Shown here piece by piece: positions 24,877 to 54,455 of a stretch of 64,000 bases of DNA; position 1 is the stretch's first letter, and each line of letters starts with the position of its first letter. The stretch spans positions 3,494 to 67,493 of the IMG/VR virus record IMGVR_UViG_3300031718_000006; one strand, written 5' to 3'. The DNA comes from a virus. The notes beneath the pieces were generated by a model. The model saw only the letters and a program-made list of their open reading frames with translations, did not search any database and had not been told where the DNA came from. The position numbers and the translations under genes are program-made.

Positions 24877-25590
24877 CTACCGAATCTGAAGCCCCGTCTT
24901 GAAGGATTTAGCGGCGTTTGCGGCTTGCGCCCACGTTCTTTGCAATTCCGCCATCTTTTTGTCGATCACGGTTGACCGGATGCCCTGCCGACCATAGGAA
25001 ACCGCCCCAGTGAACGGCAAAGCCTTATCCCGCAGATGACGCTCAATCTCCGCAACTTTCTCGTCTTCATCGCGCTTGCGGGCTTGGATATAGGCTTCCT
25101 TGCGCTTCTCCATTGAAATTTCCTTGGCCTTTACGATGATCGGAATCACCAACTCGAAAGTCCAAGTAGAGAGCGGCATGGTGTGGAATGAAAGTTTACC
25201 GTCTTCCATCTCGTGCCAGCGCAAATTATAGAGAAGTTCGACCCTGCCAGAATACGGGAATTCGCCCAATTGCTGAAGGCCGGTCGCTTCATCTAGATAC
25301 TGGACATAGTACGACTCGGGAGTTCCGTATTCGATTGCCTCGTGAAATTGTCCCAAGCACCAACAAGGCTCCCCGCTGCCACGTAAAATGTCCCGGTAAC
25401 CTTCAAAATGAGCTTCATCGACTGACCAACTTCCGCCCGAGCGGAACGATCCGTGGCCGTGACCATATTGTCCCCACCAGATGACGAAATTTGGCTCGTC
25501 ATAGCGATTTACGCCGCCTAGTTGAGTCAGTAATCGCTGAAACTCCCCTGGAGGCATGTCGCGTTCGTAGCCGATTCTGCGCCAAGTCAT
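24877..25590 (-). CDS. hypothetical protein
   Basis: ATGA overlap with the groEL stop. Confidence 0.75.
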   Translation of the reverse strand: MTWRRIGYERDMPPGEFQRLLTQLGGVNRYDEPNFVIWWGQYGHGHGSFRSGGSWSVDEAHFEGYRDILRGSGEPCWCLGQFHEAIEYGTPESYYVQYLDEATGLQQLGEFPYSGRVELLYNLRWHEMEDGKLSFHTMPLSTWTFELVIPIIVKAKEISMEKRKEAYIQARKRDEDEKVAEIERHLRDKALPFTGAVSYGRQGIRSTVIDKKMAELQRTWAQAANAAKSFKTGLQIR

Positions 25591-27278
25591 TTCGGTCGTT
25601 CCTGTGCCACGAGGCAATGGGTTATGAGCATTAACGCTGACACGCTTGCTGCGCTCTCCAATGCCACTCTAACAACCCGCAAGGGGTCGAGTACGCCTTG
25701 CTCCACCAAATCGCCAAACTCGCGTGTACGGGCATTCCAGCCGTAATTCGCGTTGGCAGAAAATTCTCCCTCAAGCTTTGGCGTCCCCTCTATCCGATAG
25801 AAACCGCCGGGTATATTTGATTGCTTGAGTGATTCAGCGTCTATCTTACAGCCGTTCCAAATAGCAGGCGCATTAGTTACACCCTTTAGAATGAAATCCG
25901 GAGACTCCCCGCCATTTTCAGCTAAGGTTCGCAATGGGGCAGAGCAGGCTTTTTTGATAATCTGAGCGCCGATCTTTTCGTCGCCCTCTAGTTCTAGGGC
26001 CACGAAAGCCGCCGCTTCCCATGCTCGAAGGAGTGCAATCCCGCCTCCAACTAGAACCCCTTCGTCTTTGGCGCACTTTGCCGCAAGCATGGCATCCTCT
26101 ACTCGCTCTTTTCGGGCGTTCATCTCAAGTTCCGTAGCCGCCCCGACTTTGATAACGGCAATTCCTCCGGCAAGTCGAGCCAATCTGCCCTGTAACCTGA
26201 GTCTCTGCGCTTCGTCGGTCGCTTCCGTGACCTGATTCCGCAATTCTGCGAGGCGTTTATTGAGAAACTGGTTCTCTCCGACATCGGCAATCATGGTGGT
26301 CGATAAAGGTTTGACCACTACCCGCTTGGCGTGGCCGAAGTGTTCAACCCGAATGTCTTTTGCCTTGAGTCCCGACATTTCGGTAATGACTTTTGCTCCA
26401 GTCATGGCCGCGATGTCTTGCAGGTGATCGAATCCTCCCGGAGTTTTGACCGCACAGGCTTTCAGGAGTTTCCGCTCTGAGTTAACCGCCAGAATCGCTA
26501 AAGCTTCGTCGGTAACGTCTTCTGCGATGACCAGAAGCGATTTGCCTTCCTGTGCCAACTGTTGAATGACTGGAAGCATGTCCTTAATGGTGACCAGCTT
26601 CTTTTCATGCAACAGCACCGCAACGTCTTCCAAGATGCACTCATTACGCTCCGGATTATTGACGAAATAAGGCGAAAGGAATCCGGTTGAGAATTGCAGA
26701 CCATCAACGATTTCAAGTGAAGATTCCGGCTTGCGGCTGATCTCGACGGTGACTACTCCGTCATCCCCGGCTTTTTCCATTGCAGTTGCGATGAGGTTTC
26801 CGAGGTACTCGTCGTTGTTGGCGGAGATAGTGGCAACTTGACGCAGCATATCTCCAGAGACTTCTATTGCCATCCGGTTGAGGGATTCCACGACAGCCAC
26901 GGTAGCTCGTTCGATACCACGCTTAAGTGCGACCGGATTAGCGCCAACTGTGATGGCTTTAAGCCCTTCGGAGAAGATAGCTTGAGCAAGCAGAGTTGCA
27001 GTAGTAGTTCCATCCCCTGATGAATCGACTGCTTCACGCGCTACCCCCTTCAAAAGATTTACGCCCATATTCTCGTGCGGGTCGTTTGCTTCGATCTGGT
27101 TAGCTACAGTTACACCGTCACGCGAGGAAACTGAAAGATTGTCGCCAAAGCGTTCATAAATGCAGTTGTTCCCATCGGGGCCGAGGGTACGCTTGACCGC
27201 ATTTGCGATCAAATCAACGCCTTTGAGGAGTTTGGTGCGGGCTTCAGGGCCAGAGACGATCAGTTTAGGCATGGTCAC
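25587..27278 (-). CDS. groEL: phage chaperonin GroEL
   Basis: TLGP, RDGVTVA, GDGTTTAT, ATISAN, LAGGIAVIKVGAATE, ERVEDA, GGG, GVLDP motifs. Confidence 0.97.
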   Translation of the reverse strand: MTMPKLIVSGPEARTKLLKGVDLIANAVKRTLGPDGNNCIYERFGDNLSVSSRDGVTVANQIEANDPHENMGVNLLKGVAREAVDSSGDGTTTATLLAQAIFSEGLKAITVGANPVALKRGIERATVAVVESLNRMAIEVSGDMLRQVATISANNDEYLGNLIATAMEKAGDDGVVTVEISRKPESSLEIVDGLQFSTGFLSPYFVNNPERNECILEDVAVLLHEKKLVTIKDMLPVIQQLAQEGKSLLVIAEDVTDEALAILAVNSERKLLKACAVKTPGGFDHLQDIAAMTGAKVITEMSGLKAKDIRVEHFGHAKRVVVKPLSTTMIADVGENQFLNKRLAELRNQVTEATDEAQRLRLQGRLARLAGGIAVIKVGAATELEMNARKERVEDAMLAAKCAKDEGVLVGGGIALLRAWEAAAFVALELEGDEKIGAQIIKKACSAPLRTLAENGGESPDFILKGVTNAPAIWNGCKIDAESLKQSNIPGGFYRIEGTPKLEGEFSANANYGWNARTREFGDLVEQGVLDPLRVVRVALESAASVSALMLITHCLVAQERPK

Positions 27279-27693
27279 CGCCTACACATCCCGCCGTTAT
27301 GCAATCGTGGTGCTCCAAGTGTGGCCGCTTCGCCTTCAACGGCCTTACTCCGCGAAGGTCTTGTAGCCGCACAATGAAATACTCCCCATCTGGGAAGTCT
27401 TGGTCTTTTGAGACTTCGTACTTCTCCGCCGTGTGCTCTCCGTAGCGCACAATGTCTCCAACTTTGATAAACCGCTCCATCGGGAACCACTGATTGCCGA
27501 GCACCACTCCGTCGCCAGCGCAAACCACTGTTCCAATGGCCTCCGGTTCGCGGTATTTATCAGGAATGGCAAACGCGCTCGGCTCCCGCACAGATTCAAT
27601 CCGCCGCAGCAAAAGCCTGTCTAGAATGGTTTTAAATGGTTCGTACTCTTGAACTTCTCGGGATGGGCGCAGATCGACTACTTCAGGTTCCAT
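27265..27693 (-). CDS. groES: co-chaperonin GroES
   Basis: DRLLLRR, GTVVCAGDG, IKVGDIVRY, YFIVRLQDLRG; directly upstream of groEL. Confidence 0.9.
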   Translation of the reverse strand: MEPEVVDLRPSREVQEYEPFKTILDRLLLRRIESVREPSAFAIPDKYREPEAIGTVVCAGDGVVLGNQWFPMERFIKVGDIVRYGEHTAEKYEVSKDQDFPDGEYFIVRLQDLRGVRPLKAKRPHLEHHDCITAGCVGGDHA

Positions 27694-27753: not shown

Positions 27754-29091
27754 TTACTTTTCGATTTCACGGATGAAGTCTACGCACGCCTCACTCCAGC
27801 CGTCGATATGCGTCCATTTCCCGTAGCCGATCCCGTTCTGATAGGGAGCGACGTTGATGAAGTATCCCTTACCGCTCGACAGAGGGATTCCAGAGCCATC
27901 CGCAGCCTGTTCATCCGTAATCACGACTAAGCGGTCATAGCGTTCTCGCTGGTTAATGAGATCAACCGCCTGCCGCGTGCAAGTGCTCGAATGTGGCTGA
28001 CTGTTCACGATAGCGTCCCGCAAGGCAAACCCTCGCCGCGAGGGAATCAGCACAGCCTTGTCGCTGAAGGTGTAAACCACGGCCTCTTGGCATACCTCCC
28101 GCAGCAACATTGCCACTCCGCAAGCGGCGTCCATTCGGGAAATCTCGGACTTGCCAGACACCGCACCACTCATCGAGCCTGAGACATCCAACAGTAGTAC
28201 CGTCTTGCCGCCGATATTCTCCTGCTCTCCGAGGCACTTCAGCATCGCCTGCTCCAACTCAGGTTCTAGCTTAGGAGCGTAACGCGCCGCCGAGATGAAG
28301 CGAAACGGCAATACCCGATCCACTTTCATCTTCAGTAATCCTTCGCGGATAGCATCCATTGAAACTCCCGCCTCCTGCATGTTCCGCAGATTGCGAAGCA
28401 GCGCCAAGGCTCCGAGTTTGTTCTCCGCCAGCAAACCTTCCCAATGGGCCTTTTTGTCCTCTTCGGACTTTTTGCCTTCACCCGCCGAGAGCTTAACCTC
28501 CCAAGTCTCCGGTGCAGGCAAAGTCCCATCAACCAACTGCTTCCAGACGGCCTCCTGCTCTTTGTTCTTGGGTTTGGCGTGGCAGAGAAACAGTACGTCC
28601 CGCAACTTCACCGCATTGTCGCGGTTGTACTTCGCCAAGTCGTATGCCGAGAACTTCTGAAACGCCGAAGCCAGTCCCTTTTTGACCTGCGCCGAAAGGG
28701 TCTTTTTCCCTGGCTGGTCTTTCCAGTAAAGCGCAACAAACTCAGAAAGTTCGTCGGCCCGTTGAATGACAGCCGCCAAAGTCTCCGATACAAGTCCGGC
28801 CTCTGCATCTTTTCGCCGTGCCAGTTCCCGCACAAGAAATAACGGCATGTGGCGAAGTTTCTGCTTCTCTCGGCACTCAACTGCAAGTAGAGCGATCTTT
28901 TCGGCTGAGACGTTCTTAGTCGCCTCAAGGATGGATTCCGCAATCGACTTGCCGTCAACGTAGAACGTATCTTCAAACAGCATGGTTGAGAGTGTCAGGC
29001 GCCGAAGCTGTAGCTCGGAGTTGATCCGAGTAGCGACTGCGCCTTCATGGGTTAATACTGGAGTGGATTTGACTTTCAGGTTGGAACGCAT
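27754..29091 (-). CDS. rsr: Ro60/TROVE RNA-binding protein with vWA domain
   Basis: THEGA, LFEDTFY, YDLAKY, LRDVLFLCH, ETWE, ALLRNLRN, LPFRF, MIDAS motif DVSGSM, VITDEQ. Confidence 0.96.
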   Translation of the reverse strand: MRSNLKVKSTPVLTHEGAVATRINSELQLRRLTLSTMLFEDTFYVDGKSIAESILEATKNVSAEKIALLAVECREKQKLRHMPLFLVRELARRKDAEAGLVSETLAAVIQRADELSEFVALYWKDQPGKKTLSAQVKKGLASAFQKFSAYDLAKYNRDNAVKLRDVLFLCHAKPKNKEQEAVWKQLVDGTLPAPETWEVKLSAGEGKKSEEDKKAHWEGLLAENKLGALALLRNLRNMQEAGVSMDAIREGLLKMKVDRVLPFRFISAARYAPKLEPELEQAMLKCLGEQENIGGKTVLLLDVSGSMSGAVSGKSEISRMDAACGVAMLLREVCQEAVVYTFSDKAVLIPSRRGFALRDAIVNSQPHSSTCTRQAVDLINQRERYDRLVVITDEQAADGSGIPLSSGKGYFINVAPYQNGIGYGKWTHIDGWSEACVDFIREIEK

Positions 29092-29128
29092 ACTACCTCC
29101 GCCAAAGGCTGGTTGCCTTGGAATTTTG

Positions 29129-29266
29129 TGCCGGGAATAAACGATGCAGGTGCTTTTATGGCTTCTGCTCTACCAGTTGAGCTACTGTCCAATTTCTAAG
29201 GTTGGGCAGGATGGACTCGAACCATCATCCAAAGCTCCCGAAGTATCCCACATCTTCGCCACGGCA
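29129..29266 (-). ncRNA. yrlA: Y RNA, YrlA-type with permuted tRNA-like domain
   Basis: Ends pair (UGCCG/CGGCA); T-arm GGUUCGAGUCC precedes D-arm AGCUCAACUGGUAGAGC; adjacent to Ro60. Confidence 0.88.
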
Positions 29267-29273
29267 ACTTTGA

Positions 29274-29354
29274 TCTCGGGGAACACGCGACAAGGGGTCT
29301 GGGCTTTCGCCCGTTCATAGGCAATGAAGGAACCCTCGTCTATCGCCACCGAGA
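29274..29354 (-). ncRNA. Y RNA-like element 2 (no tRNA module)
   Basis: UCUCG-GUGGCGAUAG...CGCGUGUUCCC-CGAGA; shares the terminal-stem motif of the YrlA copy. Confidence 0.75.
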
Positions 29355-29360
29355 ACTTTA

Positions 29361-29429
29361 ATCCAGGGAACAAGCGCCAAGAGAGAGTTTTCATTTCGAG
29401 TGAAGTATCTCTCAGCTACGCCACCGGAA
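29361..29429 (-). ncRNA. Y RNA-like element 1 (minimal)
   Basis: UCCG-GUGGCGUAG-CUGAGAGAUACUUC...CGCUUGUUCCC-UGGA; same motif. Confidence 0.75.
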
Positions 29430-29431
29430 TC

Positions 29432-29587
29432 TTATGTCTTATTGCGGGCGTCAATCGCTTCTTTGACCAAGGCCGTCAGCATATTCGCCACACTCGGCCT
29501 AGTCTCCTTTTTCGCCAGTTCCGCAGCCATGCGGTAATAATCCAGCGGAAGCCTTACAAACGTCACCCGCGTACTCTGTTTCGCCAC
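29432..29587 (-). CDS. ribbon-helix-helix regulator (Arc/CopG-like)
   Basis: TFVRLPLDYYRMAAELAKKETRPSVANMLTALVKEAI; GTG start 7 nt after the -10 box. Confidence 0.8.
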   Translation of the reverse strand: MAKQSTRVTFVRLPLDYYRMAAELAKKETRPSVANMLTALVKEAIDARNKT

Positions 29588-29594
29588 GCCTGCA

Positions 29595-29623
29595 AATTTA
29601 CAACGAAGTGACAGGGTTGTCAA
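29595..29623 (-). promoter_or_regulatory. sigma70 promoter with palindromic operator
   Basis: TTGACA-N17-TAAATT; TGACA-N4-TGTCA at 29609-29622. Confidence 0.75.
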
Positions 29624-30182
29624 GGTTTATTACATCGTATGATTTTAGATACGCCAGCGCCCGCTCTGCCCATGTGCCTGAGTGGGCAATATATTCGCCT
29701 TCGGCTAGGAACATCTCGAATTGCCCTAGCCTATGATTGCACCTTAAGCACAAAAGACCACGGACGCACTTGCCGCAAGATTTACGTTTATGGCCCGGAC
29801 AACAAATATGGCTGTGGTCGATACAGAGGCGAATGTACTTTTTGCTGCATACCGTCGCAGGGCACAGAGCGCAATGAAGCCCTTGCTGTTCAAGTTTGGC
29901 AGCATACCAGCCCCTAGGGACTCGATACTTGAGCGCATTGCCGTCTTTTTTGTATAGCTCCAAATCTCGTAGACGTGCTCCGGATCGGCAAATTTTGCAT
30001 CCCTTGTCGAATCCTGATGGTTGTTCAAATTGTTTGTGCCAACCGCACCACTTAAACCCCTTGCGGCGATAAGCGATCTGTTCTTCTTTGGAAAATCCGT
30101 ACTGATAGAGCTTGCTATTGAAGAGATGGGGTACGCCCTTGCCAGCGCGACCCCCGATTGCATTGGTGATTCGATTCGCCAT
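29598..30182 (-). CDS. Endonuclease VII-like His-Me finger (homing) endonuclease
   Basis: QQGLHCALC...IDHSH...VRGLLCLRCNHRLG. Confidence 0.88.
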   Translation of the reverse strand: MANRITNAIGGRAGKGVPHLFNSKLYQYGFSKEEQIAYRRKGFKWCGWHKQFEQPSGFDKGCKICRSGARLRDLELYKKDGNALKYRVPRGWYAAKLEQQGLHCALCPATVCSKKYIRLCIDHSHICCPGHKRKSCGKCVRGLLCLRCNHRLGQFEMFLAEGEYIAHSGTWAERALAYLKSYDVINLDNPVTSL

Positions 30183-30244
30183 TTGAGACTCCTTTGTATT
30201 TGGTGTATTTATGATACCAGAACATGGAGATATAGCAAGCAAGA

Positions 30245-30297: not shown

Positions 30298-31665
30298 CTA
30301 GATGACCGGCTGTGTTGCATTAGAAATATAAATCCCAGACCGGGGGGCACTATCAACTAAGTTCCACGATGATACATAAGCGAACATGTGAGAACTTAGG
30401 TAACTGTTACTCCCAGAAGGAGATACAGGGATATCGGGTACGGGCACCACGATCTGGCCTCCACCGAAATCGTACAATTCCAGCGGAGCGAGTTCGCCCA
30501 TGTACCAGTTGTCCATGACGAGGCCGTCGATGCGACCGGGGGTAGCAGTCCAAGAGATGTGGAGTTTGCGACCGCCGAACTCATCCTGAAAGTTTTTGTA
30601 GGCCATGTCCTGCGTGGCTTCGCCTTTGACGTTTTCGCGGAGGGCGAATTGCACGTTGTACTGGAGGTTAGCCATTGAGTAGCCTTGATCTGGCCCGGTG
30701 TACCAGATCATGGACTTCTCGGCTTCGGAATCTGGCCCGAGAGCGCGACCCAAAAGGGTTCTAGCGCGGGGGGCAAGTCCGGGGGTTACAGGGGCGTTGA
30801 GGTTGATGGTAGGGGTGCTCAAACGTCCGGGGTAAGTGGCGCGGTTCAATCCGCCAATGGTTCCGGTGTTTGAGTTAACCTGCCAAGCCTTAATGCCTAA
30901 GATTGAAGCAGATGCGGCGGCGTTGGTGGTATTGGAGTTGTAAATGAACAGGTAATCGCCAGTCTGAGTTGCTCCGCCGGATGAAGGCAGTACAGTGGAG
31001 GAGTAAATCGTCTGCGATACCGGATCAATGTAGCTGATGGTGAACGATCCGCGAGGCGAGGCGGAGGTTTCTGATGGGTAAACGGTAACGTTCTGCTGAT
31101 CGGAGAACGCAGCCGCAATATTCAGGCCGACAATGGACGAAAATGAAGGCCCAGCCGCTCCGGTTCCGCTGTTGACGGTTGCGGTCGAAGGAATCTGGTC
31201 AATCATGCCGGAACCGTCGGAATTTACTAAACCCTCAAGTCCCTGCATGGCGGAGTCCAGAGAGTTCTTCATTTCCTGCGCTTTGACTTCAAGCAGGCCG
31301 CGTTCTTTGCCATTAGTCGCCTGCTGTGCCAGCCATGAGATTTCGCAGACCGAGTAAGTGAATACCGGCGCGACGGCGAACGATGCCCACTGAGAACCAC
31401 TGCCGCGACCCAAAGAATCGGCGTTGCCAGTTCCTTGGTTCAGGGCCGCACCGCTCTGCACGCGGAACGGTACACGGAACGGAGCACGCGCCGTTCCGCC
31501 AGCCGATGTCTCGTTGGCGATCTTGACGCTATGCGCCATCTTTTTGAACAACGAATAACCCGTTGTTCCCTTCCAGATTAAGTCTGGGATTTTCTCACTG
31601 AAGCTTTCAATTTCTACGGATTCTACTGCCGATTCCAAAAGTGGGTTCGCTGAAGCGATAGCCAT
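30298..31665 (-). CDS. major capsid protein
   Basis: 455 aa; follows portal and scaffold; ILGIKAW...IGGLNRATY, C-terminal PRSGIYISN; strong terminator. Confidence 0.8.
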   Translation of the reverse strand: MAIASANPLLESAVESVEIESFSEKIPDLIWKGTTGYSLFKKMAHSVKIANETSAGGTARAPFRVPFRVQSGAALNQGTGNADSLGRGSGSQWASFAVAPVFTYSVCEISWLAQQATNGKERGLLEVKAQEMKNSLDSAMQGLEGLVNSDGSGMIDQIPSTATVNSGTGAAGPSFSSIVGLNIAAAFSDQQNVTVYPSETSASPRGSFTISYIDPVSQTIYSSTVLPSSGGATQTGDYLFIYNSNTTNAAASASILGIKAWQVNSNTGTIGGLNRATYPGRLSTPTINLNAPVTPGLAPRARTLLGRALGPDSEAEKSMIWYTGPDQGYSMANLQYNVQFALRENVKGEATQDMAYKNFQDEFGGRKLHISWTATPGRIDGLVMDNWYMGELAPLELYDFGGGQIVVPVPDIPVSPSGSNSYLSSHMFAYVSSWNLVDSAPRSGIYISNATQPVI

Positions 31666-31820: not shown

Positions 31821-31905
31821 TGGCGGAGAGTGAAGGAATCGAACCCTCATCCTTGCGGGAGCGGCGGTTTTCAAGACCGTTTGCCAACCTTTGGCCGCAC
31901 TCTCC
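31821..31905 (-). tRNA. tRNA-Ser(UGA)
   Basis: Acceptor GGAGAGU/ACUCUCC-G-CCA; loop CU-UGA-AA; long variable arm; T-loop UUCGAUU. Confidence 0.9.
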
Positions 31906-31911
31906 GAAATC

Positions 31912-31986
31912 TGGTCGGGATGGCAGGAGTTGAACCTGCGTGGACATGTTCCCAAGACATGTGGGTGGCCGCTACCCTACATCCCG
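31912..31986 (-). tRNA. tRNA-Pro(UGG)
   Basis: CGGGAUG/CAUCCCG-A-CCA; CAUGU-CUUGGGA-ACAUG. Confidence 0.93.
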
Positions 31987-31990
31987 ACTC

Positions 31991-32065
31991 TGGTGGACAC
32001 AGAGAGAATCGAACTCTCAACTCTCGGGTGCAAACCGAGCGTTTTCCCGTTAGAACTACGCGCCC
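31991..32065 (-). tRNA. tRNA-Ala(UGC)
   Basis: G3:U70; CUCGG-UUUGCAC-CCGAG; ACCA end. Confidence 0.93.
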
Positions 32066-32071
32066 AAAACT

Positions 32072-32147
32072 TGGAGCCAGCGGAGATAATCGAAACCCCA
32101 CGCGTCCGCTTACAGGGCGGTTGCTCTTCCACTTGAGCTACGCTGGC
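32072..32147 (-). tRNA. tRNA-Thr(UGU), atypical (C33, U53-A61)
   Basis: GCCAGCG/CGCUGGC-U-CCA; anticodon loop CC-UGU-AA. Confidence 0.85.
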
Positions 32148-32177
32148 AATAAAAAAGCCCCCGATTTCTCGGAGGCT
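32148..32177 (-). terminator. attenuator terminator (3:4 hairpin) immediately before the tRNA array
   Basis: AGCCUCCGA-GAAA-UCGGGGGCU-UUUUU. Confidence 0.88.
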
Positions 32178-32319: not shown

Positions 32320-32391
32320 TCACCGCAGCGCCCGCGCAAGCAACTGGATGAAGACGAAAAGCAGCAGGATTTTCAATACCGCGCAGATCAA
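32320..32391 (-). CDS. 23-aa hydrophobic peptide, putative
   Basis: MICAVLKILLLFVFIQLLARALR; TTG start overlaps the scaffold stop. Confidence 0.35.
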   Translation of the reverse strand: MICAVLKILLLFVFIQLLARALR

Positions 32392-33713
32392 CGAGGCTTG
32401 TTACCCCACGAAACATAGCGCCCGTTTCTGAGGTAGGCTCGGCCTGCAATGAACTCGGTATCGCTGGTCTTCTGCCAGTCGATTTCGTTGCGGTCAGGCT
32501 TTGAACTCGTGTATTGCGGCTTCACTCCGGCAGGTGCGGGTGCTCCCGGCTTTGGTGCTCCGGGTTTCGGCGTAGGTTTTGCTCCGCCCTTGAGGTAATT
32601 CGGGTAGCGTGTCTCGATCATGGATTTCACGATCCGAGCGGCCATCGTTTTGACCTTCGAGGCGTGATATTGCTGGATTTTGTTCTTGTCGGGGTTCTTT
32701 ACCGCAAAGAAGGCATCCATTTGCGACTGATAGCTCTTGTCGGCTTCCAACTCAGAGAAAAGACGGCTCTTAATCCCCCTAGCGAGGTCTTGTTTGCCTT
32801 CAAGTGAGAGTTGATTGAAAAAAGTCTTGTAATTTTTGAAGTATTTGCCGAGTTCTGTACCCAGTTCGCGGTTGTTATCGCCTTCGCAAGCTGTTGCTAT
32901 GCCAGTTTGGAACTCTTTCTGCTTGGTAGTCTGGAATTCTGTGCGTTCTTTTTCGAAAGCCTGCCGCTCAGGGTCGAGTTTGTCCTTGTCCGATGACTTG
33001 ACGCTGTTTTCCAGGTTGCCGAACCAGTCCGTCATCTCCTGAAGTAAGGCTTTTGCAGTATCAAGATCAGGCTTTTCGCCGCTAAGTGACTTCGCAAGCG
33101 CCCCTAAGACTTTCGGCAGCCCGACTTCCACCATGCCTTGGTAGAAATGCGGCTTCATGGTCTCGTAATAGGCTTTTTGGTCAACCTCGCGCAGGTCTTC
33201 AAGATAGGGGCCAGCCAACTTAGCAAAAGCTTCTGGATGGCCATTCGATTTCATGTCCTCATAAAGACTTCTCAGGACGCTGCGGTCGCCCGCATAGAGA
33301 GCATTATCGGTTTCGTTGACTGATTTGATTGTGGATTGAAGCTGGGATAGCCCTTCTGCCCCTCCCACAGCCTCTAGGAGCGCCTTGCTCTCCCTAGCTG
33401 CCGCTACGGTAGGGAATTCGGCCTTGTACGCCGTATAGCGCCCGTATGCGTTGTTTAACTCCCTTGCGATTGGAGCATTCTTAGGGTCTGAATCGCGGAA
33501 ATTCTTGAGTGCGGAGCGGATCGCGGCGGGATTCGTCCGTCCATCGACAGGTTTATCGCCGGGAGTTTCAGTTTCCGGTTCCGCAGCAGGTTCGTCAAGT
33601 TCCGTAGGACTTTCGGTGACTTCTTCCGCCGGAGTTTCAACAGGGGTTTCAGTTGGGGTTTCAGTAACCGGAGCAGCAATATCCATCAATGCAGAAACAT
33701 CACCAGCGGCCAT
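32388..33713 (-). CDS. capsid scaffolding protein, putative
   Basis: Acidic Pro/Glu N-terminus, helical core, between portal and capsid genes. Confidence 0.7.
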   Translation of the reverse strand: MAAGDVSALMDIAAPVTETPTETPVETPAEEVTESPTELDEPAAEPETETPGDKPVDGRTNPAAIRSALKNFRDSDPKNAPIARELNNAYGRYTAYKAEFPTVAAARESKALLEAVGGAEGLSQLQSTIKSVNETDNALYAGDRSVLRSLYEDMKSNGHPEAFAKLAGPYLEDLREVDQKAYYETMKPHFYQGMVEVGLPKVLGALAKSLSGEKPDLDTAKALLQEMTDWFGNLENSVKSSDKDKLDPERQAFEKERTEFQTTKQKEFQTGIATACEGDNNRELGTELGKYFKNYKTFFNQLSLEGKQDLARGIKSRLFSELEADKSYQSQMDAFFAVKNPDKNKIQQYHASKVKTMAARIVKSMIETRYPNYLKGGAKPTPKPGAPKPGAPAPAGVKPQYTSSKPDRNEIDWQKTSDTEFIAGRAYLRNGRYVSWGNKPR

Positions 33714-40385: not shown

Positions 40386-41057
40386 GTGAAGAAACCAGTC
40401 ACCCTTCCAGAAGGAACTCGCAAGGGGAGTCTTCTGTTGCTGCGGCCAATCGGTAAAAAGAAAGGCTTTAGGACATTATGGTTATGCATTTGCGATTGCG
40501 GCAAAGAACATAGAACGCTGCAAAAAAATTTCTCCAAGAAGGTCAAACCGCCAAGGCGGTGCAATTCGTGCAAGCATAAGAAATATGGTTCATTTTCAGC
40601 CGCAAACGGAGTTCCAAGCCCCGAGTATCATGCTTATGTAGAGGCGCGGAAACGATGTAACGATCCAAGGCATACTAGCTTCAAAATCTACGGAGGTCGC
40701 GGAATAAAGTTCAGATTTGACTCATTTGATGAATTTATTGCGGAAGTCGGGCCGCGCCCTACGGGAGCAAAAAGAACCATCTCAATCGACCGTATCAACA
40801 ACGAGGGCAACTATGAGCCGGGTAACGTGCGATGGGCGACAGCAACGCAGCAATGTCATCGCAGAAGAGGATGGAGCAAAAACACCGAATACCGTGGGCT
40901 TAACCCAAGCGGCAGTAGATGGAATGCTGTAATTAGAAAAGACCGCCAAATATACAAACTAGGAATTTTTGACAGCGAAATTGAAGCAGCCCAAGCCTAC
41001 GATGCGAAAGCCGTAGAACTCTATGGTGCAGATGCGATGCTTAACTTTCCCAGATAA
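40386..41057 (+). CDS. HNH homing endonuclease with AP2 domain
   Basis: WLCICDCG, YGGRGI, SIDRINNEGNYEPGNVRWAT, LGIFDSEIEAAQAYD. Confidence 0.93.
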   Translation: MKKPVTLPEGTRKGSLLLLRPIGKKKGFRTLWLCICDCGKEHRTLQKNFSKKVKPPRRCNSCKHKKYGSFSAANGVPSPEYHAYVEARKRCNDPRHTSFKIYGGRGIKFRFDSFDEFIAEVGPRPTGAKRTISIDRINNEGNYEPGNVRWATATQQCHRRRGWSKNTEYRGLNPSGSRWNAVIRKDRQIYKLGIFDSEIEAAQAYDAKAVELYGADAMLNFPR

Positions 41058-41938
41058 TAATGCGAACTTGAGGTCACTGGTAAATCAGGGTGTTCGGCAT
41101 GGAAACACTGCACACAGACCGCTCGATATGTCTTGTTCTCAGTCAATAGAGCTTTGTTGCACCGTTCGCATCTTGCCATGTTTGGAGCCGGAGCGCCGTT
41201 CATTAAAGCCTTCAGCGTCGATGGGTTAGCCAACGCCAGTTTGATGATTTCGATTTGCTCATCGAGTGTTCCTTCAAGCGCTTGTCCTCCCGCATGGTAA
41301 CCGTGAAATCCGATATGGACTGCCCTGGGTTTGCGCGGCCAGATACAGCGTTTTGATTCCGACTCACAGACCCGCAGAGTCAATCCATCCTGCTCGTAGT
41401 GCATTGAACGTCTGCGGTGCGATTGCGGATAAGCGCGGTCGAGATACCCTTGCATGTCGGAGTAGTATTCAGGACGGGCGTGCTGCACGATACCGTAAAG
41501 CGATTTTCTTGGGATGCAGGCGCAGACCGACAGATACCACGGAATCACCAAGTCTGGGCCTTCGCTGACAACTGCATTGGGGGAATACTGCCATCCACAT
41601 GCTGCAAAGACTTCCGGATGGGCCTCTAGCGCCTGACGGCACCACGAAAAGAACGTTGGATCGACCATCGCATCATCTTCAACGATGAATACCCTATCGG
41701 CCTGTTCCAGATAGCCGAACTTCAACGCCTCCATGACGTTTAAACTGTTTCCGTGGAATTCGTGCTTGATGGTCTTGCACTGCGTGACTCCAAAGCGTTC
41801 ACAGACATCCGATTCATCGCTATTGCGGTCGGCAAAGACGTAGACTCGCATCTCTGGATCGGCGGCCTTGATATGTTCGAGGCAGCAGGCAAGCAAGGCG
41901 CTGCGCTGGAATGTCGGGACGATACAAAGTTCCCTCAT
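41021..41938 (-). CDS. glycosyltransferase (GT-A fold)
   Basis: IVPTFQR, VFAD, FIVEDD. Confidence 0.8.
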   Translation of the reverse strand: MRELCIVPTFQRSALLACCLEHIKAADPEMRVYVFADRNSDESDVCERFGVTQCKTIKHEFHGNSLNVMEALKFGYLEQADRVFIVEDDAMVDPTFFSWCRQALEAHPEVFAACGWQYSPNAVVSEGPDLVIPWYLSVCACIPRKSLYGIVQHARPEYYSDMQGYLDRAYPQSHRRRSMHYEQDGLTLRVCESESKRCIWPRKPRAVHIGFHGYHAGGQALEGTLDEQIEIIKLALANPSTLKALMNGAPAPNMARCERCNKALLTENKTYRAVCVQCFHAEHPDLPVTSSSHYYLGKLSIASAP

Positions 41939-42549
41939 TTCCACTTCTCCTCAAACAGACGATTATTGACGTTGCACAGTTCTTCCATGCTGGTTCCCTT
42001 TTCCCTCGCCACACGAAGAAACGAAGTCCCGCCAGAGTGCTTTGCTTTCACCGCTTCCGTTGGTTGAGTGCGGTAGCCGAGGGCTTCCATCCGCCTACAC
42101 CAATCCATGTCATCCTGCCCGTACCCCTCAAAACGTTCGTCCATCGGCCCTACAGCTTCAATCACTGACCGCTTGAAATACCCGCAGACAAATGGCGACT
42201 GCCCCCAGAGTTGCACCGTAGCAATCCCGATTGAGTCATCTGAATACGCTAGTTCCTGCAAAGTCTTAACGAATGGCCCTTCAAAGCGAATATCGTCTCC
42301 GCATAGAACTACGTCGCCTTTCGCCACTTGCCATCCGAAGTTAACGTTTGCAGCGTACACAAAAGGTTCCTCGCCATCTACGACCGTCCACAGTGTGCCG
42401 GGATAGTAGTCGGGATAAAGTGACACGGGAATCAAGTTGCCATCCCGCACTAGAATCTTCGGCACATCCGGTTCGTACTGCTCGACGTTGGCGCGGAAAC
42501 CTTCTAACAGATCAGGGAACCGACTCAGCACCACAACTTGCGGATTCAT
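41935..42549 (-). CDS. glycosyltransferase family 2
   Basis: YAANVNFG, LCGDD, GPMDERFEGYGQDDMDWCRR. Confidence 0.9.
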   Translation of the reverse strand: MNPQVVVLSRFPDLLEGFRANVEQYEPDVPKILVRDGNLIPVSLYPDYYPGTLWTVVDGEEPFVYAANVNFGWQVAKGDVVLCGDDIRFEGPFVKTLQELAYSDDSIGIATVQLWGQSPFVCGYFKRSVIEAVGPMDERFEGYGQDDMDWCRRMEALGYRTQPTEAVKAKHSGGTSFLRVAREKGTSMEELCNVNNRLFEEKWK

Positions 42550-43202
42550 GGCTGGTCTCCGTCGAGATGGTGAATGCGGATCATGTCCCCGTGAACGGGA
42601 TTATAGATACCCAGTTTCATGCTTTCATTTGAGACCCCGGCAAGAATGTTCTCAATATAGTCGCATGTTCCGGCAAGATACTTCTCATTGATCTCACGGT
42701 AGAATGCCGTGGATGCTAGGTGCGGGTTCTGGCTCCATTGCACCGTGCGTATTAAATGCGTTTTCTCGCCGTTGTACATCACCCGCTCTCGCATCATGCG
42801 CTCATGCAGAGGGTGGATTCGCGGGGCGGCGTGGAACTTGATGTAATTGAATTCACCAGAGAGGATCAGCACCCCCAGTTCGTCCCACTCTATGTCAGGA
42901 TAGAATTCCCAATCGTCTTCGACGTAAAGAATCAGCGGAGTAGTGACCCGCTCAAGAGTGAACCCAATCATCCCGGATTGGTGCTTATGCTCTCCGAATA
43001 GTTCGCCCCGCGTGACTCTTGGCCGAACCGCATCAATAAATTCCACATATTCCTTCGGAAGAGGATTGGCCCCATCGCACATGAGATGTATCGGCGCTTC
43101 CGGTAAGTGCGACCGCACACTGGCAATCGTCTGATCAATGATCCGCGTGCTCGGATGCGAAGGGCGGGGCGAAGTTGAGATGAGAACTGTAACGTCAATC
43201 AT
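42546..43202 (-). CDS. glycosyltransferase (GT-A fold)
   Basis: LMCDG, ILYVEDDW, WSQNPHL. Confidence 0.78.
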   Translation of the reverse strand: MIDVTVLISTSPRPSHPSTRIIDQTIASVRSHLPEAPIHLMCDGANPLPKEYVEFIDAVRPRVTRGELFGEHKHQSGMIGFTLERVTTPLILYVEDDWEFYPDIEWDELGVLILSGEFNYIKFHAAPRIHPLHERMMRERVMYNGEKTHLIRTVQWSQNPHLASTAFYREINEKYLAGTCDYIENILAGVSNESMKLGIYNPVHGDMIRIHHLDGDQP

Positions 43203-43789
43203 GGGTAGATGCTCGGCTGCTTGCGGGCAATTACCAGCCCTCTGGGAGTATCGAAATACAAGTACTGTAGCCCTAGTTCGCGCAACAAAGGAGGCATGTA
43301 CTTTTCTCTCAAAAATCCATGAATGCCGTGATCGTGTACTGCGATGACTCCACCCTCCGTCATCTTCGGCAGAATCGCCCGTAATTCGTAGCAGCGGTTC
43401 TCGTCCGGCCCTGAATCAAGGAAAGCCAAACCGATGCCATCAGGAACCGTGGCAATCAACTCCAGGCCCGTGCATTGCTTGATGCTGACTGCGTTCAGGT
43501 CATGCTCCGCCATGCGTGCCCATGTGCGGGTAATGGAATCGTGGGCAACGTCGCACGTATACACCACCCCGAATCCGTTGTCCTTACATCCGCGTGCCAA
43601 CCGCTCTGTGCCGAATCCGTGGTAGCAGCCTGTTTCGACCACGCGCTGAGGTTTAAGCATGACCACGAGAGCATAGAGAAAATCCAAAACTTCGACTTCG
43701 GTAGCTTGTTCGTCATAGCATTTCCATAGTTGCGGGAATGGGCAGACTGAGGTTGCAATACAGACTTCCGGCTTAGTTGGTTCGTTCAT
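43199..43789 (-). CDS. class I SAM-dependent methyltransferase (Methyltransf_24-like)
   Basis: VVETGCYHGFGT, AFLDS, GGVIAVHD. Confidence 0.88.
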   Translation of the reverse strand: MNEPTKPEVCIATSVCPFPQLWKCYDEQATEVEVLDFLYALVVMLKPQRVVETGCYHGFGTERLARGCKDNGFGVVYTCDVAHDSITRTWARMAEHDLNAVSIKQCTGLELIATVPDGIGLAFLDSGPDENRCYELRAILPKMTEGGVIAVHDHGIHGFLREKYMPPLLRELGLQYLYFDTPRGLVIARKQPSIYP

Positions 43790-44370
43790 CGTGACCTCCA
43801 CATCACAATCAGGCGGTCATCAGAGCGCGGCGGAGCAACAGACGACTTCGGCTCAATGACCTTGCATGGCATCTTCAATCCATCCGCAATTTCATCCGCA
43901 GTGCCTTCTTGAACGTCCTCAATGACATAAATCCCTTCAGTTGCCAGATGCGCTCTCAGGAAGTTGGCGGCGGCGATCTGGTCTTTTACCAGATGCGATC
44001 CATCGTCGATTATCAAATCAAACAGATGGCATCGTTTACGGACGAACCCCTGCAAGGCTTTGGCGTTCCCTGCATCGCATTCCTCCAATTCGACGCGCTT
44101 TGTATCGAACTTGGTTTCTGCAATGACCTCCGGAACGATGTCGATGCCGTAGATTTGCGCCTCGGGAAAGTATTCTTCCCACATCCGCAGAGACGCTCCT
44201 GTGCAGACTCCGATTTCAAGGATGCGGCGAATCAATCTGCCGGAAAGAACCCGCGAATAGAACGGCGTGTAGGGATGTCCAGTACAACCTCGCCAATAGG
44301 GAGATTTATCGGTATCGTGCTTCAACCCTAGAGCGCAGAGTTGCGTCATCGGAATAGCGAAGTCATTCAT
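43786..44370 (-). CDS. SAM-dependent sugar O-methyltransferase-like
   Basis: TDK...HPYTPFY, ILEIGV, FDLIIDDGSH, GIYVIED. Confidence 0.88.
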   Translation of the reverse strand: MNDFAIPMTQLCALGLKHDTDKSPYWRGCTGHPYTPFYSRVLSGRLIRRILEIGVCTGASLRMWEEYFPEAQIYGIDIVPEVIAETKFDTKRVELEECDAGNAKALQGFVRKRCHLFDLIIDDGSHLVKDQIAAANFLRAHLATEGIYVIEDVQEGTADEIADGLKMPCKVIEPKSSVAPPRSDDRLIVMWRSR

Positions 44371-44557
44371 GCAGGCTGTTCTCCAGATCGTTTAAGTAGA
44401 AATCCTTTTGCGCGGCGGAAAGTCTGTGCAGTTCCCAGCAGGCGGGACAAAGCGAATGTGGCCGACCGCATATTGAACAGAAAGCGTTCATTAGAGGGCA
44501 GGATTTGTAGATTTCCTTGCAGTCTTCACAAAGAAATTCCCATGTCGCGTAGTTCAT
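44363..44557 (-). CDS. small Zn-finger protein
   Basis: Three CxxC pairs; coupled overlaps. Confidence 0.55.
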   Translation of the reverse strand: MNYATWEFLCEDCKEIYKSCPLMNAFCSICGRPHSLCPACWELHRLSAAQKDFYLNDLENSLHE

Positions 44558-45432
44558 AACGCCCCCAAGTCGATCAGGTCGCGTGCCAGCCAAGTCGAGC
44601 GGAACTTGATCTTGTAATTCCTCCACCAGTAGTTGGCCTCCCGCTGTCGGCGCTCAAAGTCTCCGAGAATTTCCGCCATCACCTGCGGCAACGTGCTCCA
44701 GTCCTCGATCACAGAAAAAGGATGTTTGCCTAAAACCAAGTCCCAGTATCCGGGCACATGGTCGGGACTGTAGGCATCGAGAATCGGCACACAACCCGCC
44801 TCAAGAGCTTCAGCAAAGCGGAAAGAGTCAGGCGTGGCAGGCCCGGAAGGACACGGCACCACTTTAGCCTGCCGCATATAGCGATAATAGTCCTCATGCG
44901 CGAATCCACTCCCGAAGGTATCAGTGGCCAGAAAGATATTTTTGTAATCGACCGGAACCGAACTGAGAGCGTGGACAAATTCCTTTCGTCTTGAATGTGT
45001 CACTTGCCCAGCAAACATCCAATCGAGAGGTCGCCCATTCTCCGCAGGCAATTTCTGATGAATCCCTGCTGGATAGCCTTCGATCATGTATCTGGAGGCT
45101 TCGGCTTTTCCCGGCTTCGGGGTTTGCAGCCACAGTCTATGATTCGGATGGTAGAGAAGGTGATAAGGAAATTCGCAAGCCTCGTCTCCAACGCTGATGA
45201 AAATTACCCAAGACAGAGGCGCGGCGTACTTGTTCAGCCTTTCCGCAACGTTTGCCCCTTGCGAACAACTGCTCTGATTCTGCCCATGAAATACGATGAC
45301 CGCACCGTTGGCCTCTAGCGGAAGTGTCGGCATGACGCAGTGCTCGACTTCCACGCTATCGAGCATTTCGTTGAGCATGGCGGCGGCGCTGCACGATATT
45401 CTCTCGGGGAACCAGACTACGGGTATATTCAC
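44554..45432 (-). CDS. exostosin-like (GT47) glycosyltransferase
   Basis: WMFAGQ, CPSG...DSFRFAEALEAGCVPI. Confidence 0.82.
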   Translation of the reverse strand: MNIPVVWFPERISCSAAAMLNEMLDSVEVEHCVMPTLPLEANGAVIVFHGQNQSSCSQGANVAERLNKYAAPLSWVIFISVGDEACEFPYHLLYHPNHRLWLQTPKPGKAEASRYMIEGYPAGIHQKLPAENGRPLDWMFAGQVTHSRRKEFVHALSSVPVDYKNIFLATDTFGSGFAHEDYYRYMRQAKVVPCPSGPATPDSFRFAEALEAGCVPILDAYSPDHVPGYWDLVLGKHPFSVIEDWSTLPQVMAEILGDFERRQREANYWWRNYKIKFRSTWLARDLIDLGAL

Positions 45433-54441: not shown

Positions 54442-54455
54442 AAGGACGGGAAAAC

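Follow-up and report, generated by a model that had tools for sequence, protein, structure and literature searches.

Gene content of the array and its surroundings

We identified exactly four tRNA genes, all on the minus strand, in the window, that is, the whole 64,000-nucleotide stretch of DNA analysed here (positions 3494-67493 of a virus record of 67,493 bases, which is linear, is estimated to be 99% complete and may lack an end) (Table 1). All four were called by ARAGORN and scored at least the gathering score of the Rfam tRNA model (Ser 56.3, Pro 51.5, Ala 45.4 and Thr 36.2 bits), with no further passing match within the window. The two programs bear out the claim of an earlier note on this DNA that Thr-UGU, Ala-UGC, Pro-UGG and Ser-UGA, each with CCA, are the sole tRNAs of the window. 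The tRNA scan of the full genome that the same note had proposed returned no additional, unrelated tRNAs, the whole 67.5-kb record having the same four and no others.

Read on the minus strand, each of the four genes was directly observed to be complete, with CCA encoded at its 3' end, and the genes are tightly packed, with spacers of 4-6 nt. Intact cloverleaves and identity elements are found in all four tRNAs, the exception being C33 of tRNA-Thr, and to judge from the sequence the identity elements look functional. The tRNA-Ser also gave 43 bits on the tRNA-Sec model, under the threshold of that model; its anticodon is UGA and not UCA. Every one of the four anticodons consists of U34 followed by G35. 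By post hoc arithmetic, the chance of this exact set is 1 in 148,995 among 45 candidate tRNA species, and the chance of the column, likewise post hoc, is 1 in 70 given four U34 tRNAs from the eight four-fold codon boxes.

Table 1. Features of the tRNA array and its neighbours (positions in the window)
Feature	Position	Strand	Evidence and remarks
Ro60/TROVE + vWA protein, 445 aa	27754..29091	-	Absent from sister phages
Y-RNA-like (YrlA) candidate	29141..29253	-	tRNA-like domain; directly upstream of Ro60 gene
Endonuclease VII-like ORF	29598..30242	-	Adjoins capsid gene
Major-capsid-like ORF, 455 aa	30298..31665	-	Directly downstream of array, same strand
tRNA-Ser(UGA)	31821-31905	-	ARAGORN, Rfam; CCA-encoded, long variable arm, G73
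tRNA-Pro(UGG)	31912-31986	-	ARAGORN, Rfam; CCA-encoded, C1:G72, A73, G37
tRNA-Ala(UGC)	31991-32065	-	ARAGORN, Rfam; CCA-encoded, G3:U70
tRNA-Thr(UGU)	32072-32147	-	ARAGORN, Rfam; CCA-encoded, G1:C72/C2:G71
Terminator-like G+C hairpin	32156..32177	-	9 pairs, then T-run ending 3 nt before tRNA-Thr
Scaffold-like ORF, 441 aa	32388..33713	-	Upstream of array; named by position between portal and capsid

The array lies inside the late block, 155 nt upstream of the capsid gene, and the virus record encodes terminase, GroEL/ES, capsid and portal relatives. In a protein atlas the capsid-like ORF fell into viral clusters, one of them with SU10_MCP on 10% of its members, and the scaffold-like ORF matched no Pfam or PHROG family. 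The terminator-like hairpin lies within the inserted segment, and in an independent metagenome one contig spans the hairpin and a tRNA-Thr relative. The Endonuclease VII-like ORF is a possible homing nuclease; sister phages carry Endo VII homologues in or beside the same scaffold-capsid junction.

The Ro60 (TROVE) gene and the YrlA-like RNA are found in the phage under study and not in its sisters G001 and G002, neither of which has anything similar to the YrlA-like stretch. The candidate RNA matches RF02553 over the full model length; its 37.6 bits fall short of the gathering score, which is 69 (E 6.6e-6 for 3.6 kb). The same segment was considered as a fifth tRNA and rejected, being tRNA-like but a sub-threshold YrlA match and not a tRNA. 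Folding of positions 29092-29600 was no better than that of shuffles (z 0.35). No RtcB gene was found in the record, and a scan of 48 of its 85 ORFs turned up no family linked to RNA repair or tRNA modification.

Codon demand of the late genes

Both runs holding the phage DNA are soil metagenomes, with no RNA run among them. The anticodon arm of the tRNA-Pro occurs in 59 stretches of a 185,579-species collection, 59/59 of them in Acidobacteriota/Terriglobia, and TROVE genes next to tRNA arrays in Terriglobales share 51-59% identity with the TROVE protein of the phage. From the tRNA-Pro motif and the Ro60 protein we infer that the host clade is probably Terriglobales (Acidobacteriota). Three proxy Terriglobales genomes were used for the host comparison, a proxy at the level of the clade and not the phage's actual host. 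Gene calling followed a greedy longest-ORF rule, and map position decided which genes counted as late or early.

The share of NCN codons was 30.1% of 8,962 late codons versus 22.0% of 7,153 early codons, and NCN was the sole codon column enriched in late genes; a late/early ratio above 1 was seen in no more than five boxes, ACN, TCN, GCN and CCN among them. The tRNA-less sisters show this too: in G001 the NCN late/early ratio is 1.44 and the top four boxes are exactly TCN, GCN, CCN and ACN, and in G002 the ratio is 1.41. NCA and NCU together made up 0.44 of late NCN codons versus 0.22-0.30 in the proxy hosts. The late NCN share and this over-use against the proxies support the alternative that the earlier note had offered, namely demand from virion proteins rich in Ser, Thr, Ala and Pro. 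Ranked by over-use among 61 codons against the three proxies, TCA stood at 2/1/1, ACA at 6/3/2, GCA at 7/8/10 and CCA at 9/13/18. When 45 candidate tRNAs were ranked by late-minus-host demand, Thr-UGU came 3/2/1, Ser-UGA 4/5/4, Pro-UGG 9/8/6 and Ala-UGC 6/14/11, so that for proxy G023 all four array tRNAs were within the top 9 of 45. Relative to the proxy hosts, the phage over-uses the codons of Thr and Ser strongly, those of Pro moderately and those of Ala weakly. Enrichment of NCA within the phage family was considered and rejected, since NCA makes up 5.45% of codons in the phage and 5.42% and 4.75% in the tRNA-less sisters; it accounts for 18-24% of each NCN box in the phage, and the enrichment is seen only against the proxy hosts.

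The four tRNAs placed highest by this demand model were Asn-GUU, Thr-UGU, Gly-UCC and Ser-UGA. The demand fit is imperfect and does not reproduce the exact column, because the higher-ranked Gly-UCC and Asn-GUU are absent from the phage and Ala-UGC ranks only 6-14. The idea that NCA enrichment alone explains the set, named in the earlier note as one that would refute its inference, holds only in part: demand accounts well for Thr and Ser and less well for Pro and Ala, and it predicts two tRNAs that the phage lacks. The tRNAs that recur in the wider phage family (Ala-UGC, Thr-UGU, Asn-GUU and Gly-UCC) are also top-ranked by the demand model.

The best explanation, to which we give a probability of about 0.5, is that the four tRNAs are a functional supplementary set made together with the late virion messages and raising NCN decoding. 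It is supported by these observed codon statistics, by the place of the array in the late block on the strand of the capsid gene, by the probable host clade, by the recurrence of top-ranked tRNAs in the wider family, and by the lack of RtcB in the record and of RNA-repair or tRNA-modification families in the ORFs scanned. With the array tRNAs, more decoding capacity would be available in the UCN (Ser), CCN (Pro), ACN (Thr) and GCN (Ala) boxes. Under the wobble rules, U34 reads A-, G- and U-ending codons and C-ending ones partly, and one U34 tRNA per four-fold box would be the cheapest coverage. The boxes served would be those over-used by the virion genes, whose A/U-ending codons would be rare in the G+C-richer Terriglobales host. 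We infer that the array tRNAs are expressed, charged and of benefit to the phage. Codon compensation or late supply has been put forward for phage tRNA clusters (PMC13015707, PMC10264068). Known clusters are likewise tightly packed, CCA-encoding and matched to late codons over-used versus the presumed host, but the present array differs in having only four genes from a single code column and in lying inside a structural operon between scaffold and capsid.

Several observations count against a supplementary role in late decoding. The capsid gene, with 32% NCN codons, prefers NCC codons (ACC is 16 of its 31 Thr codons), and U34 tRNAs read C-ending codons worst. The total NCN load is 26.85% and 26.4% in the two sisters versus 26.0% in the phage, and the sisters are without any tRNA. 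In addition, 0/20 capsid-gene relatives examined carry tRNAs at the scaffold-capsid junction, which counts against late supply and leaves conservation without support.

An accessory insert at a variable junction

Capsid-gene relatives comprised 8 viral loci and 15 metagenome loci, two of the latter apparently the same contigs as viral ones, to judge from their equal length. The array was present in none of them, and a conserved cassette was therefore rejected. A match of array length was found in none of 50,697 phage records by megablast and blastn, where 0/89 partial matches cover at least 80%. A search of genome contigs by capsid alignment gave no prophage relatives, and a search for cultured relatives left the portal unmatched and gave at most 24% identity for the terminase. 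Members of the wider phage family have from 0 to 25 tRNAs.

Across 16 relatives the distance between scaffold and capsid varies from 160 to 2,133 nt, and the cargo is unrelated from one relative to another: it may be an Endo VII gene or a methyltransferase, or there may be none. The scaffold-capsid junction is hypervariable, and the array sits in it as an accessory insert; both the insertion and the kinships of the tRNAs were observed directly. The nearest relatives of the four tRNAs differ per gene, with identities of 72-93%. The tRNA-Ala has its nearest relative in phage-family record G013 (62/75 identical), and its anticodon arm equals that of the tRNA-Ala in a family member with 15 tRNAs. 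The tRNA-Ser and its counterpart in the 25-tRNA member G006 have an exact 22-nt stretch in common, running from the anticodon arm into the variable one, and this 22-mer was found only in two family contigs.

A singleton array of such mixed kinship, at a junction of variable length and unrelated cargo, would fit an array carried along with hardly any selected function or none, a remnant or mosaic brought to the hot spot by recombination or homing endonucleases, the UGN pattern being a coincidence. The Endo VII-like gene beside the capsid gene is in keeping with this, homing endonucleases being described as companions of tRNA arrays in other systems (PMC8421152), and so is the 1 in 70 chance of the column given four U34 family-box tRNAs. 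Such an origin for the whole set is nevertheless unlikely, since all four genes have kept cloverleaves, identity elements and CCA, the array is tight and lies within the late operon, and the match to late-demand ranks, with all four in the top 9 of 45 for proxy G023, is improbable for random cargo. On the late-supply reading, the array would be a recent accessory insert at a recombination-prone junction, assembled from tRNA lineages circulating among related phages and acidobacterial long tRNA arrays.

Kinship with Terriglobales long tRNA arrays

Long tRNA arrays of Terriglobales contain a tRNA-Pro to which the phage copy is 70/75 identical; the two differ in the acceptor stem and at position 38, where the phage has A and the arrays have C. 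The order Thr-UGU, Ala-UGC, Pro-UGG, Ser-UGA is relatively the same in the phage and in these arrays, and the array versions of the other three tRNAs are distant (Thr 52/76, Ala 54/75 and Ser 63/85, or 68-74% identity). The Terriglobales arrays have 13 to 31 genes and are supernumerary, with 73-100 tRNA matches per genome, whereas the phage array has four genes and not the tens of an L-array. The Terriglobales arrays lie near RtcB-like genes; the phage array has an Endo VII-like gene and TROVE nearby, and the phage has no RtcB. Of the 59 loci with a tRNA-Pro relative, 33 have an RtcB-like gene, 6 have TROVE and 3 have Barstar. Within the arrays C33 is found in Ala-UGC (40/40), Ser-UGA (9/13) and Gly-UCC (21/29), and also in Val-UAC, Thr-GGU, Ile-GAU and Asp-GUC; the counts for Pro-UGG and Thr-UGU are 0/60 and 1/34.

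In almost all tRNAs position 33 is U. The anticodon loop of the phage tRNA-Thr is CCUGUAA, with C33 in place of U33, and A27 and A43 are unpaired, leaving an anticodon stem of 4 bp. Contigs from a second soil metagenome cover this loop, with no difference listed at 32112-32116. A supply role alone leaves C33 and the broken 27:43 pair unexplained, which counts against it. An unrelated 88-kb viral contig has the same 17-nt anticodon arm, letter for letter. This 17-mer has 9 matching stretches, of which 1/9 lies within a tRNA; the other eight do not overlap an ARAGORN-called tRNA, fit chance matches and were rejected as tRNA relatives. Compared with proxy host G023, the tRNA-Thr differs at 8 of 17 anticodon-arm positions, including 32, 33 and 27:43, and the stretch U36-A-A-U-C-A41 of the proxy-host tRNA-Thr is absent from the phage copy. 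The Ala and Pro arms each differ from G023 at 5 of 17 positions. These anticodon-arm differences from the proxy host could equally be ordinary tRNA divergence.

Modification, damage and the choice of anticodons

The earlier note placed the four tRNAs in the (m)cmo5U34 wobble modification class of E. coli. This background holds and can be sharpened: the mcmo5U34 tRNAs of E. coli are exactly those for Ala, Ser, Pro and Thr, selected by CmoM via G35 (PMC5909439, PMC10516636). The phage set has the same four anticodons and the same shared G35, a likeness of sequence only. It is conceivable, but very improbable, that this modification changes during infection and that the phage makes up for the change or takes advantage of it. 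The only bases contacted by CmoM are U33, cmo5U34 and G35 according to the same papers, and C33 of the phage tRNA-Thr falls in that triplet. Against this, K218, the sole CmoM residue contacting U33, tolerated mutation, and U33 was not regarded as a crucial determinant by the authors of PMC10516636. No clear CmoB was found in the proxy hosts: model PF08003 gave only partial, weak matches in 5/5 proxy Terriglobales genomes (20-33 bits, model positions about 95-227 of 315), and control genomes, which we presume to lack CmoB, were matched too. A 194-aa phage methyltransferase was tested as a CmoM-like enzyme and rejected, as it resembles sugar O-methyltransferases instead. Nothing on point was found in the literature on phage tRNAs with cmo5U.

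The set had also been taken in the earlier note to imply a host activity that recognises U34-G35 anticodons. That inference is not supported, and U34 is simply the broadest-reading isoacceptor of each four-fold box. The premise that phage tRNAs can substitute for host tRNAs cut by nucleases is documented (PMC12409363, PMC12445682). A reading built on damage or defence keeps some probability through C33 in the tRNA-Thr, the kinship with arrays linked to RtcB and Ro60, and the phage's own Ro60 and Y-like RNA. Tentatively, a host defence or competitor toxin in Terriglobales might cut or disable the NCN-reading tRNAs, which share G35, the phage bringing a resistant, broad-reading U34 tRNA for each box as a back-up while Ro60 and the Y-like RNA handle damaged RNA.

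G35 is common to all four tRNAs, and CmoM shows that a protein can select exactly these four through it. Moreover, tRNA-Thr(UGU) is a main target of PARIS AriB and P2-OLD, and a rescue tRNA-Thr resists P2-OLD partly through U43A, which removes the 27:43 pair (PMC12409363, PMC12445682). The phage copy resembles these T5-like rescue tRNAs in being a tRNA-Thr(UGU) with an altered arm, and its loss of 27:43, beside C33, parallels U43A of rescue tRNA-Thr6. The array differs from them in lacking Lys-UUU and Asn-GUU, in retaining the CNG motifs in its tRNA-Thr and in having a host other than E. coli. The recurrence of the same 17-nt arm in an unrelated viral contig, the 8/17 differences from the proxy host with loss of U36-A-A-U-C-A41, the RtcB-like, TROVE and Barstar genes and frequent C33 in the long arrays holding the nearest tRNA-Pro relatives, and a TROVE and YrlA-like pair peculiar to this phage versus its sisters would all suit such a back-up.

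On the other side, our literature search found no nuclease with NGN or U34-G35 specificity, and nothing on point for a nuclease hitting Thr, Pro, Ser and Ala tRNAs together or for C33 in phage tRNAs. The anticodon loop is ordinary in all of the phage tRNAs but tRNA-Thr, that is, in three of four, the 5/17 arm differences of Ala and Pro are expected of any diverged tRNA, and within the arrays C33 extends beyond UGN tRNAs and is absent from Pro-UGG and nearly so from Thr-UGU. The phage is without RtcB, and much of the set is already accounted for by codon demand. [quoted passage not shown]

The locus is also like the Ro60 (Rsr)-YrlA modules of bacteria and phages: a YrlA-like RNA lies directly upstream of a gene for a TROVE and vWA protein and shares its strand. 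It differs in that the phage RNA is below the Rfam threshold, and any tie to the tRNA set would be through neighbourhood and shared kinship with acidobacterial array loci only. It is doubtful, though conceivable, that this phage carries a pared-down, mobile form of an acidobacterial "tRNA array + Ro60 + RtcB" island, made up of the four tRNAs together with the Y-RNA-like gene and Ro60. Such an island would be kept because a Terriglobales immune nuclease or a competitor toxin disables G35 tRNAs; a resistant four-way U34 set would restore a quarter of the code, and C33 and the altered stems would be marks of resistance.

Implications

The array comes from a family of uncultured soil phages whose hosts are probably Acidobacteria, a group for which very few phages are known. 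If the array does supply tRNAs for late NCN decoding, it would be a clean small case of codon-matched tRNA carriage, with tRNA-less sisters as natural controls. If it is instead a back-up against tRNA damage, it would suggest that some unrecognised activity targets tRNAs through the middle base of the anticodon, and a function would be gained for array-type tRNAs and for phage Ro60/Y-RNA modules. The phage mini-array is linked to the long tRNA arrays of Terriglobales, and C33 is common in those mobile tRNAs.

The tRNA array and its surroundings

We identified four tRNA genes, each ending in an encoded CCA and separated by spacers of 4-6 nt, lying within a portal-scaffold-capsid gene order. ARAGORN and Rfam confirmed the earlier note's description of a complete UGN set with no other tRNA: nothing else in the 64-kb window passed the Rfam tRNA model at its gathering score, and the entire 67,493-base record (linear, estimated 99% complete) contained the same four only. 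Together they cover every NCN codon. By post hoc arithmetic, this exact set is one of 148,995 four-member choices from 45 candidate tRNA species, or only one of 70 on the prior assumption that all four are U34 tRNAs belonging to the eight four-fold boxes. A hairpin and T-run end 3 nt upstream of tRNA-Thr, and a search for a sigma-70-like promoter gave none; the four tRNAs would be transcribed by read-through together with late messages.

Positions of features in the phage (window coordinates unless prefixed) and in two other loci
Feature	Position	Strand	Basis or remark
tRNA-Thr(UGU)	32072-32147	-	ARAGORN; Rfam tRNA model at gathering score
tRNA-Ala(UGC)	31991-32065	-	ARAGORN; Rfam tRNA model at gathering score
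tRNA-Pro(UGG)	31912-31986	-	ARAGORN; Rfam tRNA model at gathering score
tRNA-Ser(UGA)	31821-31905	-	ARAGORN; Rfam tRNA model at gathering score
Scaffold-like ORF	32388-33713	-	Flanks array
Capsid-like ORF	30298-31665	-	Flanks array, other side
Ro60/TROVE+vWA protein with YrlA-like (Y RNA) candidate directly upstream	27754-29253	-	TROVE kinship, Rfam
YrlA-like candidate RNA	29141-29253		37.6 bits against Rfam gathering score of 69; full model length
GroEL (563 aa) and GroES-like protein	25587-27693	-	Phage-encoded
Three glycosyltransferase-like and two methyltransferase-like genes	41021-47288	-
Cro/C1-type HTH protein	54354-54707	+	Within short plus-strand gene block
YqaJ exonuclease and ERF recombinase pair	G000:C1:519-1868		Left end of phage record
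tRNA-Thr(UGU) with identical C33 arm	L055:11610-11681	-	Rfam 44 bits; missed by ARAGORN
31 tRNAs in a Terriglobales array	L170:1172-6778

Among the other genes, TROVE and the YrlA-like RNA are absent from the sister phages G001 and G002, and only the phage studied here (G000) has both. GroEL is conserved, with 58-66% identity to the proteins of the sister phages. The glycosyltransferase-like cluster, in which one methyltransferase-like gene resembles macrolide-pathway sugar O-methyltransferases, may serve glycosylation of Ser/Thr-rich virion proteins. Scans of 48 of the 85 ORFs turned up no RNA-repair or tRNA-modification family, and an integrase was likewise absent from the ORFs scanned.

Relatives lacking the array and the origin of its genes

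Neither the closest relative, G001 (a complete genome with terminal repeats), nor G002 carries any tRNA; none lies within 10 kb in eight viral loci with capsid proteins 59-81% identical, and tRNAs are likewise absent from 15 metagenome loci (59-83%). In the 16 relatives holding both genes, scaffold and capsid are 160 to 2,133 nt apart, and the gap contains nothing at locus L006, an unknown ORF and a Methyltransf_24 protein at L005, and an Endonuclease VII gene at L009. In the alignment the tRNA block is an insertion 5' of the conserved capsid leader, and on this comparison the array is evidently an accessory insert. That it is a passenger seems unlikely. G000 and G001 are mosaic relatives, since only 25 of the 88 greedy ORFs of G001 are common to G000 (E 1e-5). 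In four of the capsid-gene relatives (L165, L169, L010 and L166) the capsid-gene match spans 1.8-2.0 kb as against 1.37 kb, suggesting that an intron, intein or homing element interrupts the gene; the match in L161 is less clear, at 1.56 kb by one measurement and 1.30 kb by another.

Among all sequences gathered in this analysis, the nearest relatives of the four tRNAs were found in G009 for Thr (55/76 identical), G013 for Ala (62/75), Terriglobales arrays for Pro (70/75) and G006 for Ser (65/85). G003 has an identical Ala anticodon arm, and 22 consecutive nucleotides of tRNA-Ser recur unchanged in G006. The set looks to have been put together or kept from several lineages and not copied in a single block.

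The wider family was defined by a portal alignment (97 relatives, 80 kept), and the 16 records searched whole hold between 0 and 25 tRNAs. G003 and G004 each have 15, including three Thr and Ala-UGC, and G006 has 24 in a single block, including Pro-UGG, Ser-UGA and Thr-UGU, with an Ala-UGC upstream of portal on its contig (locus L071). Smaller sets occur in G007 (Ile, Val, Thr-UGU, Ala-UGC, Asn), G009 (His, Gly-UCC, Thr-UGU, Asn, Met), G014 (Met, Ala-UGC, Asn), G015 (Val, Ala-UGC), G008 (Met), G010 (Asn) and G013 (Ala-UGC). Small sets in this family are thus not generally UGN; Ala-UGC, Thr-UGU and Asn-GUU recur across it.

Long tRNA arrays and the probable host clade

No cultured or prophage relatives of the phage were found. 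Near-identical tRNA-Pro, differing at position 38, is abundant in metagenome contigs, and querying 185,579 species genomes for the Pro anticodon arm, with any base allowed at position 38, gave 59 stretches, all in Acidobacteriota (titles including Terriglobia, Terriglobales and Acidobacteriaceae). Across these loci, which hold 625 tRNAs in total, 44 of the 60 tRNA-Pro copies are identical; in most of the loci tRNA-Pro lies within an array, and 33 loci have 11-31 tRNAs within 8 kb. The arrays are supernumerary, since tRNA matches number 73-100 in every one of the five genomes checked. They fit the 'L-arrays' of PMC8421152, described there as spread horizontally, located close to rtcB and homing endonucleases, and induced by stress in Anabaena. 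Within 8-kb windows an RtcB-like gene is found at 33 of the 59 loci, TROVE at six and Barstar at three; the L170 array is flanked by TROVE, Barstar, an RtcB-like ORF and a SWIM protein. The TROVE protein of the phage shares 51-59% identity with those encoded at these loci. Two independent markers, the tRNA-Pro arm and this TROVE kinship, point to Terriglobales as the probable host clade.

Codon demand of late genes

The earlier note had offered demand from virion proteins as its alternative, and the codon data favor it. With ORFs called by a greedy longest-ORF rule and split by map position, NCN codons make up 30.1% of late and 22.0% of early codons in G000 (ratio 1.37), 29.5% and 20.5% in G001 (1.44), and 30.3% and 21.5% in G002 (1.41). 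The only late-enriched boxes in G000 are ACN (1.85), TCN (1.57), GGN (1.47), GCN (1.19) and CCN (1.09). NCA and NCU together account for 0.44 of NCN codons in phage late genes, compared with 0.22-0.30 in three proxy hosts (G023, G025 and G026; GC 57-60%), each sampled over 100-120 kb.

Against these hosts in that order, over-use among 61 codons ranked 6/3/2 for ACA, 2/1/1 for TCA, 9/13/18 for CCA and 7/8/10 for GCA, while late-minus-host demand among 45 candidate tRNAs ranked 3/2/1 for Thr-UGU, 4/5/4 for Ser-UGA, 9/8/6 for Pro-UGG and 6/14/11 for Ala-UGC. NCA enrichment alone explains the set only in part: NCA and NCU are over-used relative to all three proxies, but there is no NCA enrichment within the phage family, and Gly-UCC (1/4/3) and Asn-GUU (2/1/2) are in high demand yet missing from this phage. 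The capsid gene favors NCC codons. Demand accounts for much of the set and for much of the family's recurrent tRNAs, not for the exact column. We consider it most likely, with a probability of about 0.5, that these are plain supplementary tRNAs suited to virion genes whose codon use is NCN-rich and A/U-ending; they would act in an acidobacterium richer in G+C and would be carried as a recent accessory insert.

Anticodon arms and tRNA-targeting activities

Position 33 of tRNAs is almost universally U. Three of the four phage tRNAs have ordinary anticodon loops, whereas tRNA-Thr has the loop CCUGUAA, with C33, and an unpaired A27/A43; 27:43 is likewise mismatched in tRNA-Ser. An unrelated viral contig of 88 kb (locus L055), which holds about 30 tRNAs, has a tRNA-Thr with an identical 17-nt arm, including C33 and the A/A mismatch. 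In a second soil metagenome, contigs bear a tRNA-Thr relative: three span the Thr loop with no difference listed there, some have 27:43 altered on both sides to G-C, and one includes the upstream hairpin. These contigs depart from the window downstream of that tRNA and therefore do not contain the same array. C33 is thus genuine and recurrent.

The earlier note had read the U34-G35 set as implying a host nuclease or toxin. A damage-resistant back-up set against a tRNA-targeting activity is possible but less probable than supplementation. The mcmo5U34 tRNAs of E. coli are exactly these four and CmoM selects them through G35 (PMC5909439, PMC10516636), and a protein can therefore read out the set; under the back-up reading G35 alone would more likely be the shared mark than the U34-G35 of the earlier note, with U34 following by economy. 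Known nucleases also strike members of the set: P2-OLD cleaves tRNA-Thr(UGU), and phage rescue tRNAs withstand it by a shortened stem (U43A) combined with an altered CNG motif (PMC12445682); PARIS AriB cleaves Lys-UUU, Thr-UGU and Asn-GUU at 40|41 beside U36-A-A-U-C (PMC12409363); and T5 tRNA-Ala(UGC) is cleaved by a bacterial Schlafen. The housekeeping tRNA-Thr of G023 has the U36-A-A-U-C-A stretch and paired CNG motifs; phage tRNA-Thr lacks that stretch and the 27:43 pair but, unlike the rescue tRNAs, keeps CNG. Over positions 27-43, the phage differs from G023 at 8/17 in Thr (CCUGA-UUUGUAA-UCAGG in the host), 5/17 in Ala (CCUGG-UUUGCAA-CCAGG) and 5/17 in Pro (CCUGC-CUUGGGC-GCAGG). In this Acidobacteriaceae genome, the stem pairs 27-30:40-43 (CCUG/CAGG) are common to housekeeping Thr-UGU, Ala-UGC, Pro-UGG and Val-UAC (L240, L245, L258, L235) and occur in no other tRNA read out.

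Against a back-up role, RtcB was not found in G000, and C33 in Terriglobales arrays is a trait of mobile array tRNAs without a tie to UGN: it is present in Ala-UGC (40/40), Val-UAC (6/6), Ile-GAU (5/6), Gly-UCC (21/29), Ser-UGA (9/13), Thr-GGU (17/31) and Asp-GUC (9/29), in a single Thr-UGU (1/34) and in no Pro-UGG (0/60). The CmoB model gave only weak, partial matches in five proxy genomes, and for this reason the E. coli mcmo5U34 class may be inapplicable to this host; a modification-centred role is highly improbable.

In conclusion, supplementation of codon use in virion genes is the reading that we prefer. The kind is already known, and this member is new, with useful natural controls.
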